Virus record (IMG/VR): IMGVR_UViG_3300037313_000612 | Location: 1 to 28,283 of that record | Length of the DNA stretch: 28,283 bases | Strand: one strand, 5' to 3' | Origin: a virus | Lineage: Duplodnaviria > Caudoviricetes | Part shown: positions 4,276 to 28,111 of the stretch, piece after piece | Layout of the letters: each line of letters starts with the position of its first letter | Position numbering within the stretch: position 1 is the stretch's first letter | Program-made: the position numbers and the translations under genes | Notes under the pieces: generated by a model | What the model was told of the DNA's origin: nothing | The model's input: only the letters and a program-made list of their open reading frames with translations | Databases searched by the model: none

Positions 4276-4469
4276 GCGACGAGCAGGACAACGACCGCAG
4301 CCAGCATGGCGTTGCCGATCCCGAGCACGAGGCAGGTAATGACGAGCCCTTCGATCCGGTCGAGCCGTTCCCGCACCGTGCCGCGTTCGGGATAGATCAG
4401 CCCTCCGCGAGACTCGAGCAGGTATGGCCGGCCGCGGAGGACCGGGCCGCCGCGGCGAAGCCGGATCAT
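4272..4469 (-). CDS. Small membrane protein
   Basis: ATG 4469 overlaps the RecT-like stop. C-terminal hydrophobic helix LVITCLVLGIGNAMLAAVVVLLVA. Confidence 0.6.
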   Translation of the reverse strand: MIRLRRGGPVLRGRPYLLESRGGLIYPERGTVRERLDRIEGLVITCLVLGIGNAMLAAVVVLLVA

Positions 4470-5677
4470 GCCTCCTCCTCGGCCGCCGCGTCCTGGGTGA
4501 TCTGGACCATGAGGGCGATCACGTCGTCGCGGGACCGGCACGGCGCGAGGACGCGAAGGATCTCGTTCGCTTCGTCGTAGGTGAGGTGTTCGGGGGTGTC
4601 GCCGGCGCGGAAGCTGTCGACGGCGTGGCCCACGATCGCGGCGGCGATGTTCAGCCGGGATTCGCGGTCGTCGGGTTCGTCGGTCCAGCCGAGCCCTTTG
4701 AATCGGGCCTGTAGGGCTTTGGTTTGCGCGGAGTGCATGGGCTTCGGCTTGGTGTCGACCGGGCCGTCCTCGGCGACCTGGGCGGCGACGTCCTCGGCTG
4801 CCTCCCAGATCTCGCCGGGGTCGGGTTCGGCCGGTGTGACGTCTTCCGGTACGTCGCGCCCCTCCCCAGGGGTGGACCCGGCCGAACCCACACCAGCAGT
4901 GTCGCTCACAGGCGCGGCCGGGGGCGGCGGTGGCGCGATATCCGCCGAACGTGGCGGCGACCCAACCGGCCCAACCGGCACCACAGGATCAAGCTGTGCA
5001 GAACCAGCCAGGGAAGCGCCCGACCGGGCCGCCTGCGCAGATCCTCTCGGCTTCCGAGCAACACGGGTAGTCGCCGTCTCACCAGACGACGCGCCCGCGT
5101 CGACCTCGCCGAACAGTTCGCCGTCTTCGACCTCCTCCGTCGCCCGCATCCCATGCGTCACGTCAGGGAAGATCAGCCGGCACAACTCGGCCGTCGCCCG
5201 AGCCGTCAACATCTGACGCGGGTAGCTCTTCCACACGGCTTTGTTCGAGATCCCGGCCCGCTGGGCGTCGGCGAGAGTCCAGACGATGATCGTCCACGCC
5301 GTCTCGCCCTTGCGCCGACCCTTGACCTCGACCTTGCTCGACGACACCTCGCCGTACCCGATCTCGTGCCCAGCGGCCAACACCTGCGCCCGCATCGTCT
5401 CCGCGGCCAGCGTCGGTTTCCCCTCGACCATGTGAATGTTCGACAGGGCGTGCATCGGCGGCATGTCCAGTTCACGGCCGAACAGGACGGCAGCGGTCAC
5501 AGCGGCCGGGTTGTTCCGCAGCGCCCGCGGAACAAAGTCGGTGTTCGCGACCTGGGCGGCGAGCTCGGCGACCGGCTGCAGGACGGCGATCCAAGCGTCG
5601 GTGCGTTCGTTGCGGATCGATAGGGATTGCTCGAGCGGGTCGGGGTCGCGTCGGGCGATCTCGTTACTAGGCGGCAT
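4466..5677 (-). CDS. RecT-like single-strand annealing protein with long Pro/Ala linker and C-terminal helical domain
   Basis: Start ATG 5677. FVP..LR..PA...AAVL.G.EL...PM.AL..IH..EGKP.L.A..M and W..YPRQML.ARA..ELCR..FPDV..G motifs. Directly follows an exonuclease gene. Confidence 0.8.
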   Translation of the reverse strand: MPPSNEIARRDPDPLEQSLSIRNERTDAWIAVLQPVAELAAQVANTDFVPRALRNNPAAVTAAVLFGRELDMPPMHALSNIHMVEGKPTLAAETMRAQVLAAGHEIGYGEVSSSKVEVKGRRKGETAWTIIVWTLADAQRAGISNKAVWKSYPRQMLTARATAELCRLIFPDVTHGMRATEEVEDGELFGEVDAGASSGETATTRVARKPRGSAQAARSGASLAGSAQLDPVVPVGPVGSPPRSADIAPPPPPAAPVSDTAGVGSAGSTPGEGRDVPEDVTPAEPDPGEIWEAAEDVAAQVAEDGPVDTKPKPMHSAQTKALQARFKGLGWTDEPDDRESRLNIAAAIVGHAVDSFRAGDTPEHLTYDEANEILRVLAPCRSRDDVIALMVQITQDAAAEEEA

Positions 5678-6476
5678 CTTCTTCAGTCTCCGGGGGGTCA
5701 ATGGGTGCGTGGATACGGGGGTTGTCGGCGACCGCGGCATCGTCGCGGGCCATGGCGAGGGCGTACAGGAATTGACGGAATGCTTCCGCGTCGATCTCTG
5801 CCGGCAGCATGTCGACGGAATCGGCCTTGATGTGGGCGACGTACGCCGCTTCGACGGGAGGCGCGGCCTGCTCGGACTGCGGCCCGTCAGGCTGCCACAG
5901 GTCACACATCGCATAACCGGCGAGTTGTAACGCCGTCTCGCTGTAAACGCCCTTGCCTGTCTTCAGATCGACGAGACAGTAAGCGCCACCGAGCCGGCCG
6001 ACCCGGGCGAACAGGTCACCCGTACCGCCGTACCGATATTCGGTATTCGCGAGCGGGACCTCAGCGGCGACGGGTTCGATCTCCCACAGGTCGCAGAACC
6101 TCGCGTAGGCCTCGACCGGGCCGCGATTCTCGTCGGACACGTCGACCGGCTTCCCGTGGACGAGCCGCTGACCCAGTTCGTGGATCTGGTTACCGCGCAA
6201 CGCAGCAGCGGTCTTGGTGTTGAACTGGACCCCGCGCAGGACGTCGAGCCGCTCCGAGGGCGGCATCTGGGCGAGCTCGGCCCAGTGATCGATCGCGTAC
6301 TCGGCGGTGACCCGGCCGGCCCAGCCGGTAAGCGCCGGCTTCGCCTTCGCGTTAAGGGCTGTGGTCACGCCCATGATCTTGTGGGGGTCGGTCTTGCTGT
6401 AGCGGCCTGGGCAGTCGCAGTCGAGGGTGTAGGCGTGCCCGTTGCGGCCGAACTTGTGCAGCTTCAGCCGCGGCAT
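5667..6476 (-). CDS. PD-(D/E)XK exonuclease (RecE/Cas4-like recombination nuclease)
   Basis: GVTT.L....KPAL..WA, RG..IH, E, YGGTGDL, LVDLKTG.GVY.E.ALQLAGY. Confidence 0.85.
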   Translation of the reverse strand: MPRLKLHKFGRNGHAYTLDCDCPGRYSKTDPHKIMGVTTALNAKAKPALTGWAGRVTAEYAIDHWAELAQMPPSERLDVLRGVQFNTKTAAALRGNQIHELGQRLVHGKPVDVSDENRGPVEAYARFCDLWEIEPVAAEVPLANTEYRYGGTGDLFARVGRLGGAYCLVDLKTGKGVYSETALQLAGYAMCDLWQPDGPQSEQAAPPVEAAYVAHIKADSVDMLPAEIDAEAFRQFLYALAMARDDAAVADNPRIHAPIDPPETEEDAA

Positions 6477-7819: not shown

Positions 7820-7910
7820 GGCGGGGCCTTTCTTCGCGGTCGGGTGTGTCGTCTTGGGCGAGCAGGGCGAGGATGTCTGCTTGCCGGATCGCCTGCTCGA
7901 CTGTGGTCAC
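7704..7910 (-). CDS. Possible small protein coupled to the HTH gene
   Basis: GTGA overlap with the HTH stop, but 116 nt of overlap with the next gene. Confidence 0.3.
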   Translation of the reverse strand: MTTVEQAIRQADILALLAQDDTPDREERPRHGQRTARPVQVRSLQLRQRPARAVPSTAPAPAPEPEAP

Positions 7911-8158
7911 GGGTTTGTTGGGTCGGGGTGGTCGGATGAGGTTGGGGCCTGTAGCAACGATGCCGGCTCAACTTCGAGGGCTTCGGCGATGCGCGACAGG
8001 TCGTCGACGTCGAACGAGATCCGGCCGGCGAGGCGGTGGGACAGGCTCGAGCGGGCCATTCCGATACGGGTAGCGAGCTCCTCCTGTGTCACCCCTCTCC
8101 GGGCGATCTCGGCCCGGATGTTCCCTGCTAGGGTCCGGGATAGGTTGGTGTTCGTCAT
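7907..8158 (-). CDS. XRE/Cro-family helix-turn-helix regulator
   Basis: NIRAEIARRGVTQEELATRIGMARSSLSHRLAGRISFDVDDLSRIAEALEV. First gene after the leftward promoter. Start ATG 8158. Confidence 0.9.
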   Translation of the reverse strand: MTNTNLSRTLAGNIRAEIARRGVTQEELATRIGMARSSLSHRLAGRISFDVDDLSRIAEALEVEPASLLQAPTSSDHPDPTNP

Positions 8159-8165
8159 GAACGTG

Positions 8166-8195
8166 ACGTTAGGTGAGCGCACATTCTGTTGTCAA
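8166..8195 (-). promoter_or_regulatory. Leftward sigma-A-type promoter TTGACA-N18-TAACGT
   Basis: -35 at 8195-8190 and -10 at 8171-8166. The HTH ATG follows after 7 nt, suggesting a leaderless mRNA. Confidence 0.75.
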
Positions 8196-8239: not shown

Positions 8240-8281
8240 TTTCAACACACCGCGACAGTGAGAGGGACCGAGACAAGGCCG

Positions 8282-8488
8282 ATGAAAACCATCCGAACCT
8301 GCGGGCACACCGCCACCGAATGCACCGCAGCACCCCACATCCACCGAGCGGGCTACCGGTCGGCGCACGCAGCAGACAAGTACGCCGCGACCGAGCCTGC
8401 GCCTGCGGGCCGCATCTACGTCGTACGGGACAACCACGAGGACCCCGGCAAGGCGACCGCGCTAGATATCTGGTGCGTGCCCCAGTGA
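8282..8488 (+). CDS. Small hypothetical protein
   Basis: First ORF after the rightward promoter. Its stop overlaps the methyltransferase start (GTGA). Start could be 8258 or 8282. Confidence 0.6.
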   Translation: MKTIRTCGHTATECTAAPHIHRAGYRSAHAADKYAATEPAPAGRIYVVRDNHEDPGKATALDIWCVPQ

Positions 8489-9690
8489 GGATCGGTTCTC
8501 TGTGCAGCGGGTACGGCGGTCTAACGCTCGCCGTACAGGCAGCCCTAGGCGGCGACGTCGCGTGGCATTCGGAGATCGAACCTGCGGCGAACCGTGTCCT
8601 AGACCAGCGGTTCCCCGACGTGCCGAACATCGGCGACATGACCCGCGCGGACTGGGCCAGCGTTGAGCCTGTCGACGTGCTCGACGGGGGTACGCCGTGC
8701 CAGGACGTGTCCCATGCTGGGAAGCGCGCTGGGATGCGGGCTGGGACCCGCTCCGGGTTGTGGTCGAGCATGGTCGACGCGATCGACGTACTGCGCCCGC
8801 GCCTTGTGGTGTGGGAGAACGTGAGAGGGGTATTGAGTGCCGAAGCGGATAGCGGAGTGGAATCCTGCCCGTTGTGTGTGGGAGACGGGTCAGGGCCAGT
8901 TCTGCGGGCACTTGGCCGTGTTCTCGGAGACTTGGCCGATCTCGGGTATGACGCGCGGTGGTGTGGCTTACGAGCTGCCGACGTCGGCGCTCCTCATGGC
9001 CGGTTCCGCACCTTCGTTGTTGCCTACCCCGTTGAGCGTCCCGTCGTCGGAGGCATCGCACAACCAGTTGAGCGGGACATTCCGCGCGGCTATGGACAAG
9101 GCGCTGTCGCTGTTGCCGACCCCAGCGGCGTACGACGGGGAGCGTGGCGGCCCGCAGGACCCGGCGAAGCGGAAGGCGGGCGGGCACTCGGTGACGTTGC
9201 AAGACGCGGTCCACGTTCTGCTGCCGACCCCGAAGACGACGGACTCGCATCACAGCTCGCCAGCGGACATGGCGCGGAACGAGCCGGGGTTACGGGCGAT
9301 CGGGCGGCTGCTTCCGACGCCCCGGGCGACGGATGGGACGAAGGGCGGCCCGAATCAGCGTGGCAGCTCGGGAGATCTCATGCTTCCGTCAGCCGTGCAA
9401 CTGCTGCCGACCCCGATTGGGGCCCGTACGAACCCGCGATTCGACGCTGGGAGCACGTCACAGGACGAGCTGCCCCTTCCCCCACAGAGCGAAGCGCCCG
9501 AGGAGGAGAGCGCCTGAGTCCACGCTTCGTCGAATGGATGATGGGGCTTCCCCAGGGCCACGTCACAGACGTTCCCGGCATCAGCCGTAACGACCAGTTG
9601 AAAATGCTGGGGAACGGGGTCGTCCCCCAGCAGGCAGAGGCGGCGATCCGCCACCTACTCACCCCAACCGCGACACGGGAGACACCATGA
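8485..9690 (+). CDS. DNA (cytosine-5) methyltransferase, catalytic polypeptide
   Basis: Motif I SLCSGYGG, II SEIE, III GDMT, IV GGTPCQDVS.AG, VI ENVRG, VIII GAPHGRFRTF, IX RLSPRFVEWMMGLP, X LKMLGNGVVPQQA. GTG start at 8485. Confidence 0.92.
   Translation: MRIGSLCSGYGGLTLAVQAALGGDVAWHSEIEPAANRVLDQRFPDVPNIGDMTRADWASVEPVDVLDGGTPCQDVSHAGKRAGMRAGTRSGLWSSMVDAIDVLRPRLVVWENVRGVLSAEADSGVESCPLCVGDGSGPVLRALGRVLGDLADLGYDARWCGLRAADVGAPHGRFRTFVVAYPVERPVVGGIAQPVERDIPRGYGQGAVAVADPSGVRRGAWRPAGPGEAEGGRALGDVARRGPRSAADPEDDGLASQLASGHGAERAGVTGDRAAASDAPGDGWDEGRPESAWQLGRSHASVSRATAADPDWGPYEPAIRRWEHVTGRAAPSPTERSARGGERLSPRFVEWMMGLPQGHVTDVPGISRNDQLKMLGNGVVPQQAEAAIRHLLTPTATRETP
8837..9517 (+). CDS. Nested +1-frame ORF inside the C5 methyltransferase, putative specificity (TRD-array) polypeptide with LLPTP repeats
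   Basis: 226 open codons. GAGAGGGG SD-like sequence 6 nt before GTG 8837. Five perfectly conserved LLPTP motifs with synonymous variation in this frame. Confidence 0.75.
   Translation: MPKRIAEWNPARCVWETGQGQFCGHLAVFSETWPISGMTRGGVAYELPTSALLMAGSAPSLLPTPLSVPSSEASHNQLSGTFRAAMDKALSLLPTPAAYDGERGGPQDPAKRKAGGHSVTLQDAVHVLLPTPKTTDSHHSSPADMARNEPGLRAIGRLLPTPRATDGTKGGPNQRGSSGDLMLPSAVQLLPTPIGARTNPRFDAGSTSQDELPLPPQSEAPEEESA
9017..9415 (+). repeat. Five 15-bp dispersed repeats (consensus CTGCTGCCGACCCCG) delimiting four 90-108 bp modules
   Basis: Copies at 9017, 9110, 9218, 9308 and 9401. Spacings of 93, 108, 90 and 93 bp are all multiples of 3. Confidence 0.8.
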
Positions 9691-10307: not shown

Positions 10308-10619
10308 TCAGGGTAGCGAGATCACCCGGAACAACCCGCAAGTGATCACGGTCGTCGTCGGCGCGTCGACCAGCTTCGCCTGTAGGCGGTAGTCGCCCGG
10401 GGTCGTTGCCGTGAACAACGCGGCGGCCCGGATCACGTTCGGGGGGGTCGTCCCGTCCTCGTTCGCCGGGTTCGCCCATGCTGACGCGACCCCGGCCGGG
10501 TCGACCGTGCGCAGTTGTACGGCGACCCCCGTCACGTCCACGCCGTGCAGCTCCTCGATCCTGCCCCACACGAAGTCGGTCGTGCCGACCTCGAGCGTGC
10601 GGACGTCCTCGGTGATCAT
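10308..10619 (-). CDS. Small beta-rich virion-associated protein (Ig-like fold suspected)
   Basis: ATG 10619 overlaps the upstream stop. ...TPGDYRLQAKLVD.P....CG.FRV. Confidence 0.7.
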   Translation of the reverse strand: MITEDVRTLEVGTTDFVWGRIEELHGVDVTGVAVQLRTVDPAGVASAWANPANEDGTTPPNVIRAAALFTATTPGDYRLQAKLVDAPTTTVITCGLFRVISLP

Positions 10620-11800
10620 GCGTTCTCCACTTCCGTCAGCCAGCGGGCCGGCTCGACCGTCGCCGTCCACGTATCCGATTCGATGGTCGCCGACCAGCGG
10701 CCCGTTTCGACGACCGCGGCCCAGTCGAGGTCCCGGTAGAGCGCGTTCGGGTTGTACGGCGCGACCCCTGTGTCTGTCTCGGCCGCGGGCGTGATCGCCT
10801 GCGACCGCGCCTGTGTGACCGTTACGGCGACGTCGAGCTCGGTCGCGGGGGTGACGGCCTGGGACCTCGCCCGGGTCGGTGTGACCGCTGTGTCGGCCTC
10901 GAGCGCCGGGGTGATGACCTGCCCCCCGGGATGCGCCGGCGCGACCCCGACGTCCGTCTCGATCGCGGGCGAGATCGCGATCACTCGGGACTGGGCCGGG
11001 GTGACCGCCGTGTCGGTTTCCGTCGCCGGGGTGATCGTGGTCGCCCGCGCCTGCGACGGGGAGACAGCGGTGTCCGTCTCCGTCGCGGAAGTGATCGCCC
11101 GGGATCGCGCCTGGGCCGGGGTGATCGCGGCATTGGTCTCCGTCGCCGGGGTGATCGCTTGACTGTTCCCACCGCCACCGGACGCGGGCCGAAGCGCGAT
11201 CAGCGCGCCGAGCTGGACCGTCGACGTCGACACCCCGCCACCAGAGATCGACTCCGACCCAGCCGAGCCGGCGATCTTGGTGTTGGTTTTGAGGTAGTTC
11301 GCCTCTTGCTGTTCGGTGTAACCGGTCGGGGCTGTGCTGGTCGAGCTGTTCTCGTTCGCGATGAGGTGCAGCATCCCGCAGCCCGCCGAGCTGGTCGTCA
11401 GCGAATTCGACGGGTACGCCGTACCGGACGCGACCTGGGCCGTCGACACAGCCACGTCGAGCGGGGTGGTGTTGTCGACCCCGGACCACAGCGTGCATTG
11501 GCCCTGATTCCAATGCGTCGACGACCACGACGGCGTATAGCTGCCCGAATCCGCGCCCGTCAGGACCTTCCGGGCCGCTTTGATCTTCTGGAATCCGTCA
11601 GTCGACGACGCGAAGTTGACGATCTCGACGAACCCGGAGGGCCAGGTGACCGTGGGGTTGGTCGCGGTCGACTGCCACAACTCGAGGACGAGCACGGCGA
11701 CGTGTCCCGCTGCCGCGCCGGCCGGGACCGGCACGGCGCGTGATGTTCCTTGCGCGTCGGTCGTGCCCGATGTGGACGACGCGACTAGGGCGACCGCCAC
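10616..11800 (-). CDS. Putative fibre or minor virion protein with beta-rich N-terminal domain and seven 20-aa repeats
   Basis: Ser/Thr/Gly-rich domain, SGGGG linker, then repeats of QAITPATETDTAVTPAQARS. Confidence 0.75.
   Translation of the reverse strand: MAVALVASSTSGTTDAQGTSRAVPVPAGAAAGHVAVLVLELWQSTATNPTVTWPSGFVEIVNFASSTDGFQKIKAARKVLTGADSGSYTPSWSSTHWNQGQCTLWSGVDNTTPLDVAVSTAQVASGTAYPSNSLTTSSAGCGMLHLIANENSSTSTAPTGYTEQQEANYLKTNTKIAGSAGSESISGGGVSTSTVQLGALIALRPASGGGGNSQAITPATETNAAITPAQARSRAITSATETDTAVSPSQARATTITPATETDTAVTPAQSRVIAISPAIETDVGVAPAHPGGQVITPALEADTAVTPTRARSQAVTPATELDVAVTVTQARSQAITPAAETDTGVAPYNPNALYRDLDWAAVVETGRWSATIESDTWTATVEPARWLTEVENA
10750..11161 (-). repeat. Seven degenerate 60-bp tandem coding repeats
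   Basis: 20-aa period visible in the translation. GGGGTGA(T/C) recurs on the plus strand. Confidence 0.8.
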
Positions 11801-26902: not shown

Positions 26903-28111
26903 TCAGCCGGCCTCCTCGCCGAGCAGGTCAAGCATCGAGATCTGGCCCTCGACCTGCTTGGCCGGCTTCGCGACCCGCATCGCCTTAGCGATCTGGTCCG
27001 GGTCATTGGTGCGCCACTCAGCTAGCCGGCAGTAATCCGCGGACATGTCGACGCTGATGCCGTGTCGACCGAGCGCCTTCGCGACGAGCGCGGTCGTACC
27101 TGTCCCGCCGAACGGGTCGAGCACGACAGCGGGCCGGGTGGGTGCGGTCGGTTCGGGGCACGCGCAGGCGTAACCGGTGATGGTGGTCAGCACGTTGCGT
27201 TGAAACATCCCGGCCAGGTGTTCACTGCGGTCGGGTCCGTTGACCTCGGCCCATGTCGAGTTGTCTTCGGTTTTGCCCGTTGCGGATCTCACACTGAGGG
27301 GCCGGCGTCCTTCGCCGCACGCCGTACACACACCGGACGGTGACCAGCCTTGGATGATGCGCCGCGGCCACTCAGTCGGGAACGCGGCGAAGTGGTCGAC
27401 GCCCAGCGACTCGGGCACCTTGAGAGGTTCGGTCGGGATCTCCCACACCGACCCCGGCAGCTTCCCTAGCGGGTTGCCAGCACCGTTCATCGATCCCGAC
27501 ATTGGGCGGGCGTAGTCGCTCGTACGGATGCGAGTGACGGCATCGGCCGTAACGTGCGCCTCACGGATCTCGTCGACGGCGCTGAAGTACCGCGGGTTCA
27601 GCGTGAAGTGGAACCACTGTTCATGGCTGCGGCGGACCCGGTCGGTGACGGACTCGGGTAGCCCGTTCGGCTTCGACCAGATGATCTCGGCGCGCAGGAT
27701 CAGGCCGAGCTCGTCGATGCAGCGGATCGCGTACCGCCACGGAATACCCAGCAACGTCTTCGGCCGGAACCCGACCACTGTCGGCCGCTGCTCGTACGTT
27801 GCAACCTGTGCGCGGTCCACGCGGCCGCCAGTCGCGCCCTGCACACCCTGGTTCGCGGCGTACTTGTCGCCGAGGTTGACCCACAGCGACCCGGATGGTT
27901 TCAGCGCCCGCACACACTCGCGGGTGACCTCGAGCAGCGAATCCACGAACGCGGCCGGGGTAGGTTCGTCGCCGATCTGGCCCGCGTAGTGCTCACCCCC
28001 GTCCTGGTACGACCGCAGCGCGAAATACGGTGGGCTGGTCACCACCAGATCCACGCTGTCATCCGCCAGAGGCAGCGCCCGAGCATTCGCCCGGACCACA
28101 TCAGCCCTCAT
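26903..28111 (-). CDS. Site-specific DNA amino-methyltransferase, beta class (N4-cytosine likely; N6-adenine not excluded)
   Basis: Motif IV VTSPPY near the N-terminus, LKP.GS.W.NLGD, IIW.KPN, HFAAFP, motif I VLDPFGGTGTT near the C-terminus. GAGGAGG SD. Confidence 0.92.
   Translation of the reverse strand: MRADVVRANARALPLADDSVDLVVTSPPYFALRSYQDGGEHYAGQIGDEPTPAAFVDSLLEVTRECVRALKPSGSLWVNLGDKYAANQGVQGATGGRVDRAQVATYEQRPTVVGFRPKTLLGIPWRYAIRCIDELGLILRAEIIWSKPNGLPESVTDRVRRSHEQWFHFTLNPRYFSAVDEIREAHVTADAVTRIRTSDYARPMSGSMNGAGNPLGKLPGSVWEIPTEPLKVPESLGVDHFAAFPTEWPRRIIQGWSPSGVCTACGEGRRPLSVRSATGKTEDNSTWAEVNGPDRSEHLAGMFQRNVLTTITGYACACPEPTAPTRPAVVLDPFGGTGTTALVAKALGRHGISVDMSADYCRLAEWRTNDPDQIAKAMRVAKPAKQVEGQISMLDLLGEEAG

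Follow-up and report, generated by a model that had tools for sequence, protein, structure and literature searches.

To our knowledge, bacteria and phages rarely possess long dual coding on a single strand in which selection acts on both frames, and among methyltransferases M.EcoHK31I was the only case found in the literature examined. The conserved motifs of C5 methyltransferases are numbered I to X, and the Bacillus phages SPR and phi3T possess multispecific methyltransferases. Three described systems are relevant here. In M.EcoHK31I (YGGCCR), a second chain, β, is encoded inside the α gene in another frame, is separately initiated and carries motif IX (PMC2836561), and the predicted TRD is assigned to α (PMC2836561, PMC3404938). 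N-terminal deletions of this β weaken its association with α; the activity in vitro is abolished from 42 residues on, and in vivo a deletion of 50 residues lowers the activity, of which some remains (PMC2836561). M.AquI (CYCGRG) also consists of two chains, the small one containing the distal part of the variable region and motifs IX-X (PMC3404938). Finally, orphan multispecific enzymes of phages contain several recognition modules in a row and give protection against many restriction systems (PMC12707154).

Here, we describe a phage methyltransferase gene with a second, conserved reading frame in its +1 frame. A preliminary description of this DNA had proposed a two-polypeptide, potentially multispecific methylase with its specificity subunit hidden inside the catalytic gene. 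We consider, with a probability of about 0.72, that the best explanation as a whole is one gene giving a catalytic α chain and a +1 β chain that docks on it and supplies four alternative DNA-recognition cassettes.

Genome setting

The window, by which we mean the whole stretch of 28,283 nucleotides that was analysed, belongs to a tailed phage, as it includes genes for terminase, portal, capsid, tape measure, endolysin, RecT, an exonuclease and a repressor. The closest relatives of the methyltransferase gene are found in actinobacterial phages and prophages, which points to an actinobacterial host. The gene is located in a short rightward stretch diverging from the repressor gene (7907-8182), and no restriction endonuclease gene adjoins it in the 32 and 30 ORFs scanned. 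Six-base palindromes are strongly avoided across the window: GGCGCC occurs once against 21.9 expected, GGGCCC six times against 19.8 expected, and GGATCC, CAGCTG, CACGTG and GCATGC do not occur at all.

Several other genes of the window, all on the minus strand, may be recorded. A second orphan DNA methyltransferase, of the N6/N4 class (PF01555, 9e-38; 26903-28111), is encoded just upstream of the terminase region. There are also an HNH endonuclease (88-906), a pair of RecT and exonuclease (4466-6476), and a 394-amino-acid protein with T-P-A-x-E-T-D repeats and no family match (10616-11800).

The catalytic chain

Judged from its sequence, the product of the gene is a phage C5 cytosine methyltransferase. 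The α frame starts at a GTG that overlaps the stop codon of the upstream ORF (8258-8488) in the form GTGA. Residues 1-185 match PF00145 at 1e-30, and the chain matches phrog_116 at 1e-70 and M.HhaI at 1e-8. Motifs I to X, all of which had been claimed for this frame in the preliminary description, are indeed present in order, together with the catalytic PC, the ENV and the arginines of motif VIII, and the calls are supported by invariant columns in the alignment of homologues (Table 1). An ATG at 8320, from which the frame is also open, was rejected as the start of α, as it lies inside the upstream gene and its anti-SD pairing is poor (-1.5 versus -5.2).

Table 1. Positions in the window of the α and β chains and of their parts.
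Feature	Position	Strand	Basis or remark
α, C5 cytosine methyltransferase catalytic ORF, 401 aa	8485..9690	+	ORF and PF00145
α motif I	8494-8520	+	
α motif IV, catalytic PC	8689-8712	+	
α motif VI, ENV	8815-8823	+	
Putative internal ribosome-binding site GAGAGGGG with the in-frame TGA at 8834-8836 and the GTG at which β would start	8823..8839	+	anti-SD pairing, covariation
β, nested +1-frame ORF, 226 aa	8837..9517	+	ORF, homologues
β N-domain (W-N-x-A-R...W-P-x-S-G-M-T-R-x-G)	8837..9016	+	conservation, predicted docking
α motif VII	8929-8949	+	
α motif VIII	8986-9009	+	
Cassette 1, 31 aa	9017..9109	+	sole close relative in catalytic frame of L123
α filler, aa 185-308, cassettes read off-frame	9037..9408	+	composition
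Cassette 2, 36 aa	9110..9217	+	type common to 22 loci
Cassette 3, 30 aa	9218..9307	+	sole close relative in catalytic frame of L102
Cassette 4, 31 aa	9308..9400	+	commonest type in sample, 51 loci
Fifth LLPTP and β tail, overlapping α segment WGPYEPAIRRWE (9418-9453)	9401..9517	+	
α motif IX	9514-9552	+	
α motif X	9610-9627	+	
α motifs IX-X, joint span	9514..9627	+	

Between motifs VIII and IX, α contains a filler of 124 residues of low complexity, in which G, A, R and D account for 57% of the residues (42% in motifs I-VIII) and hydrophobic residues for 15% (32% in motifs I-VIII), so that the earlier impression of a G/A/R/D filler is borne out. The variable region of α has no conserved content across relatives, and the filler is likely to be a passive linker joining motif VIII to motifs IX-X.

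Two further segments of α were noticed. An insert after motif VI (8852-8905) with a C-x-x-C sequence (ESCPLCVG) lies under the first strands of β; β starts earlier in relatives lacking this insert, and far longer inserts are found in L028, L049, L054 and L194. The conserved α segment WGPYEPAIRRWE reads ARTNPRF in the +1 frame, resembling the beginning of motif IX (xNPRF) in the β of relatives that have motif IX there; this reading may be a vestige or chance.

The nested chain and its start

β consists of a conserved N-domain of 60 amino acids, four cassettes of 30-36 amino acids and a fifth LLPTP. The 226-amino-acid ORF and its five LLPTP motifs had already been recognized in the preliminary description and stand as described there, but the N-domain, which is the best-conserved part of β, lies over α motifs VI-VIII and is likely the docking part, had been overlooked. 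Homologues of β amount to 2482 called proteins, one of them an identical 226-amino-acid protein, and were found in 207 phage records; β matches phrog_1008 at 3e-24. It has no match in Pfam or NCBIfam, sequence searches of the PDB with β alignments gave no significant match and no solved relative, and a search of the ESM Atlas gave only unnamed clusters. An exact look-up of the α and β sequences matched neither chain. Among the GenBank records opened, β is missed in Shauna1 and Tweety, truncated in Eesa and called in Priya, where the overlap is partial, and the fully nested form is unannotated in those of Shauna1, Tweety, four plasmids and the E. coli locus described below. The earlier statement that standard gene callers would miss β was overstated in view of the called homologues.

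The stretch composed of GAGAGGGG, the TGA and the GTG overlies the α codons for V-R-G-V-L-S, and among 22 possible +1 starts in the gene this GTG has the strongest anti-SD pairing. A GTG is found at the same column in 39 of 105 non-redundant loci (less than 80% identical) against a background of 1.4%. Arg114 of α is AGA or AGG in 30 of the 33 loci with that GTG and in 2 of 20 elsewhere, a codon choice that would build the ribosome-binding site of β. In 63 of 67 other loci, a start codon is present within 40 codons upstream of the N-domain. A search for sigma-70 promoters found none. It is very probable that β is translated as a separate chain.

Selection on the nested frame

The length of the +1 frame by itself is not significant: of 5000 synonymous recodings made for α, 680 (13.6%) leave the frame open, and open-frame length was dropped as evidence for β. 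In the reverse direction, the α frame is open in 176 of 5000 recodings of β. Within the filler, it is the +1 frame that has the third-position GC signature (0.85; genome 0.86), and the value of the catalytic frame is 0.57.

Comparison of relatives is more informative. Of 100 relatives gathered with α alone and having motifs I-VIII in one ORF, 99 have an open +1 frame across motifs VII-VIII, the controls being 40 for motifs II-III and 18 for the +2 frame. Judged by codon counts, the α codons in the overlap are frozen to the needs of β: among the 105 non-redundant loci, Gly154 is GGG in 99 of 100 and Ala151 is GCC in 87 of 88, and Tyr155 is TAT in 65 of 79; the codon for Tyr10, in contrast, is TAC in 51 of 63. 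In profile score, the real +1 frame exceeds all of 100 synonymous recodings in 99 of the 105 loci, a result that holds for low-GC loci far from the training set of the profile as well. As a control, the single-chain enzyme MtbP of SPbeta gave no nested β signal, as 79 of 100 recodings reach its +1 score. The pN/pS ratio of cassette 4 is 0.24 in the +1 frame versus 2.66 in the catalytic frame (40 copies), and all six cassette types tested agree in being conserved in the +1 frame. In the fusions L075 and L194, which have the N-domain in frame behind motif VIII, the +1 frame stops at or just before motif VII.

Two observations were not counted. A catalytic-frame pN/pS above 1 was rejected as a sign of positive selection, being the mirror of selection on β, and the openness of α under 233 of 233 cassettes was set aside, as it is true by locus labelling.

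As far as sequence comparison can tell, the +1 frame is under selection, and there is good support for a real case of dual coding. The preliminary description had claimed selection on the nested frame and had named frame-specific dN/dS and the openness of the +1 frame in homologues as ways to check it; the pN/pS ratios, the open frames of the relatives, the frozen α codons and the comparison with recodings all agree with its claim.

The cassettes

The LLPTP motifs start at 9017, 9110, 9218, 9308 and 9401. Their copies differ synonymously in the +1 frame, whereas the catalytic frame reads VVAYPV, AVADPS, SAADPE, AASDAP and TAADPD, and they delimit four modules, the fifth LLPTP being a boundary only; here the preliminary description was accurate.

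In the family, 346 cassettes fall into 138 clusters and are arranged in shuffled order with a median spacing of 33 amino acids; of these, the +1 frame accounts for 258, the catalytic frame for 80 and the third frame for 8. The same type never occurs twice in one locus, against 18.9 occurrences expected (0 of 2000 shuffles). There are 23 mixed-frame arrays, and in 20 of them all +1 cassettes are located upstream of those in the catalytic frame. The type of cassette 4 is in the +1 frame in 43 of its 51 loci and in the catalytic frame in 8, in a sample partly collected with this cassette. In one contig of run X2, the N-domain is joined directly to a cassette-4-like stretch, which fits cassette shuffling, and the source organism may differ.

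What are the cassettes for? Several distinct tandem modules between motifs VIII and IX, as in multispecific enzymes, are present, but in the +1 frame. Cassettes that share a chain with motif IX always sit just before it, the place of C5 TRDs (PMC2413257), and the shortest relatives have one cassette directly before motif IX, with about 45 residues from VIII to X in α (L037). The cassette profile matched neither the TRDs of SPbeta MtbP nor those of the EcoHK31I-like α, and the published TL core P[STCA]PT[ILV][TASV] is fitted in full by 11 of 346 cassettes and in its first four positions by 86. Predicted folds of cassettes have pLDDT values mostly below 50, and that of the fusion L075 is confident in the core but of low confidence in the variable region. 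In a comparison of cassette type with palindrome avoidance over 84 non-redundant loci of 10-20 kb, 1 of 10 cassettes passed (type 1, ACNGT), with a small effect and with kinship uncontrolled. Their position makes it fairly probable that the cassettes are TRDs, and gives an even chance that the enzyme is multispecific.

A model of the complex

A model of α 1-395 with β 1-128, built with our own alignments, scored 0.86, the best of three controls scoring 0.29. The mark for such models is reached by 116 of 157 solved pairs versus 2 of 215 mismatched pairs, counts that hold only roughly here, given these alignments. At least 62% of the contacts are common to the runs, and the partner pLDDT is at least 66. 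The top contacts are between β 33-44 and α 143-160, and 16 of the 25 best contact pairs are encoded at most 6 codons apart. The N-domain is thereby predicted to dock on motif VII of α. Residues 90-102 and 121-128 of β, belonging to cassette 2, the only cassette that appears in the modelled interface, are also in it, as are residues of α motifs VIII, IX and X, the pairing of which with cassette 2 is not specified by the model. A short β folded alone was uninformative, with a pLDDT of 56.5 and a pTM of 0.22. Of the co-folding of both chains with DNA suggested earlier, the two-chain part gives this docking score, the model holding protein chains alone.

Layouts in the family

The gene belongs to a large family with several frame layouts, which the preliminary description of the nested gene had overlooked. 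When 197 sequences were scanned (a redundant set, including 80 loci collected with β), 188 were classified and 9 were unclassifiable; the N-domain is in the +1 frame in 181 of the classified loci and in frame in 2, and 5 gave no match. Longer proteins with the N-domain were not found among 12 candidates. In the layout of the window, α contains motifs I-X and β is nested; a variant has the array split between the frames. In others, α contains I-VIII and β contains the cassettes and IX-X, or α contains I-VIII and X with motif IX in β, and there are also loci with three ORFs and single chains. Motif IX is in β in 16 to 18 relatives, and a small chain with IX-X is found in 11 to 12, for example L004, phage Priya gp83/82. 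The layout with IX in β is present on plasmids of Nostoc, Acinetobacter, Bacteroides and Methanomethylovorans, where it is annotated as one gene. Selection on the +1 frame is seen in phages as well as plasmids, over a range extending from Actinomycetota to Nostoc, Bacteroides and an archaeon. In a quick tree of motifs I-VIII, with SH-aLRT only, the loci with IX in β are nearest to the outgroups, the other layouts are interleaved, and the 7 rows with IX-X in β take 7 changes, which gives a tentative order of the layout changes.

Some individual loci deserve mention. Shauna1, Priya and Eesa are phages in culture on laboratory hosts. Phage Tweety has two near-identical α genes close together (L199:161-946, 1501-2613), of which gp69 lacks IX-X at its end, and an unannotated β is nested in gp72. 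On the plasmid of the model cyanobacterium Nostoc PCC 7120, α (L083:2215-2976) is annotated as a methyltransferase of 253 amino acids, and the unannotated +1 ORF carries a cassette and motif IX. In L042, L060 and L067, frameshifts between motifs VI and VII, which may be assembly errors or pseudogenes, fuse motifs I-VI to the N-domain or break α.

A possible mechanism and its alternatives

An outline of the proposed process is as follows. Ribosomes would start β at the internal GTG, using a ribosome-binding site written into the codons after motif VI. β would dock, by way of the N-domain, at the edge of α where motif VII lies, and would offer one cassette at a time beside the active site. α would read the cassette DNA as a low-complexity linker to reach motifs IX-X, and this part would only have to stay open. 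If one cassette at a time is used at the active site, several sequences would be methylated and the phage would be shielded from several restriction enzymes. As the parts would meet by docking, insertions and deletions could move cassettes and IX-X between the chains. An anti-restriction role is suggested by the orphan setting, the avoidance of six-base palindromes and the precedent of Bacillus phages (PMC12707154). In the earlier two-polypeptide, multispecific reading, the part concerning two chains is well supported, with selection, start, register and model behind it, and the steps to TRDs and multispecificity are argued from position and shuffling.

The cassettes might instead not be separate specificities: the two chains would form an enzyme of one or loose specificity, with spare, decayed or structural repeats of which one is in use. 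This would account for the lack of a match to known TRDs, the poor fit to the TL core (11/346), the appearance of cassette 2 alone in the modelled interface and the lack of a clear link between cassette content and palindrome avoidance in flanking DNA. However, all six types tested are under purifying selection, no gene has duplicates and the shortest relatives, such as L037, keep one cassette before motif IX, and we regard this explanation as unlikely. A genuine β protein that acts outside catalysis, perhaps by regulating or inhibiting α or the restriction enzymes of the host, is suggested by the presence of all ten motifs in α, which makes β unnecessary for motif IX, unlike in EcoHK31I; this alternative is highly improbable given that other layouts join the N-domain and cassettes to IX, to IX-X or to the whole enzyme and that the variable region of α has no conserved content.

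Ribosomal frameshifting from the catalytic frame into the cassettes, resulting in a fused protein, would suit the arrays that change frame among relatives (23 mixed, 20 of them with the +1 part upstream) and the natural in-frame fusions. A single shift, however, would lose IX-X, β is provided with a conserved start and ribosome-binding site of its own, directly preceded by a +1 stop, and the β of M.EcoHK31I is separately initiated (PMC2836561). Moreover, a single stretch of DNA conserves motifs VII-VIII as well as the N-domain, and therefore one chain cannot hold both; we give frameshifting very little credence. It is hardly credible, too, that the nested frame is a relic or by-product, either of an enzyme broken by compensating frameshifts or of codon use, even though the frame of the window is open in 13.6% of recodings and L007, L013, L042 and L060 are in three pieces or have frameshifts. 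Selection on the +1 frame holds over the whole range of phages and plasmids given above, and the α frame is open in only 176 of 5000 recodings of β; the tests of codon freezing, recoding and openness appear to have largely refuted it.

Returning to the docking β with its four cassettes, this reading can be widened to a combinatorial anti-restriction system in actinobacterial phages, with more than 100 interchangeable cassettes of 30-40 amino acids, a shared docking site and function from either frame, which we put at slightly less than even odds. In such a system, cassettes would work from either frame because α and β share one docking site, and single insertions or deletions would redistribute cassettes and IX-X without killing the enzyme. 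M.EcoHK31I would then be an outlier of a large and mostly unannotated family, and new 5mC specificities could readily be drawn from the cassette library. TRD function of the cassettes, if real, would account for the ability of small phages to cope with many restriction systems, and would provide a natural swappable toolkit for sequence-specific cytosine methylation. The layout with the N-domain in the +1 frame is mostly annotated as one gene in the 181 of 188 classified loci that have it, a redundant set partly collected with β. Cloning, or prediction of specificity, from the annotated protein alone would lose the recognition part, and codon optimisation of the gene would destroy β.

Comparison with known systems

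An EcoHK31I-like locus was found via a primer from the supplement of PMC2836561, which matches 81 of 5426 E. coli genomes. One such E. coli locus encodes an α of 309 amino acids beside a NotI-family endonuclease and a +1 β of 176 amino acids, in which W37-S-N-S-G-M overlies motif VII, in register with its counterpart in the window. The N-domain of the window matches residues 28-56 of this β; the HMM match is weak, with 8 to 18 bits and, for a single target, E values of 6e-5 to 7e-8, and it is below the threshold of the family architecture scan, and none of 100 recodings reaches the +1 score of the E. coli β.

The likeness between the window and M.EcoHK31I thus consists of a +1 β, wholly nested and with its own start, and of W-x-x-S-G-M in register over motif VII, the homology being weak. 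They differ in that motif IX is in β in M.EcoHK31I but in α in the window, and in that the predicted TRD is in α in M.EcoHK31I, whereas the α of the window has a filler and the cassettes are in β. The EcoHK31I-like locus also lacks the LLPTP array, which forms four cassettes in the β of the window, and has an adjacent endonuclease gene, of which none was found beside the gene of the window.

The split of M.AquI, compared by description, is shared by those relatives that have an α with I-VIII and a β with the N-domain, cassettes and IX-X; in the window, in contrast, IX-X are in α and β is fully nested. SPbeta MtbP is a single chain without a nested β signal, whereas the window uses two frames rather than a single polypeptide, and the TRDs of MtbP do not match the cassette profile of the family. 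PHROG 1008 ('DNA methyltransferase'; 3e-24) is the same protein family as β, as are the paired overlapping 'DNA methylase' genes of actinobacteriophages in GenBank, both being annotations only; Priya gp82 starts at the same GTG as the β of the window. The literature searched contained no account of phage methyltransferases with a nested β or a cassette array; A/B subunits of some members may already be listed in REBASE. The available part of the Tweety paper gives the genes only as probable methylases, and that of PMC10333322 contains nothing relevant on nested β or cassettes. The gene of the window would work like M.EcoHK31I but lacks two of its defining features, motif IX in β and the predicted TRD in α; what is new with respect to M.EcoHK31I is motif IX in α and a cassette array in β.
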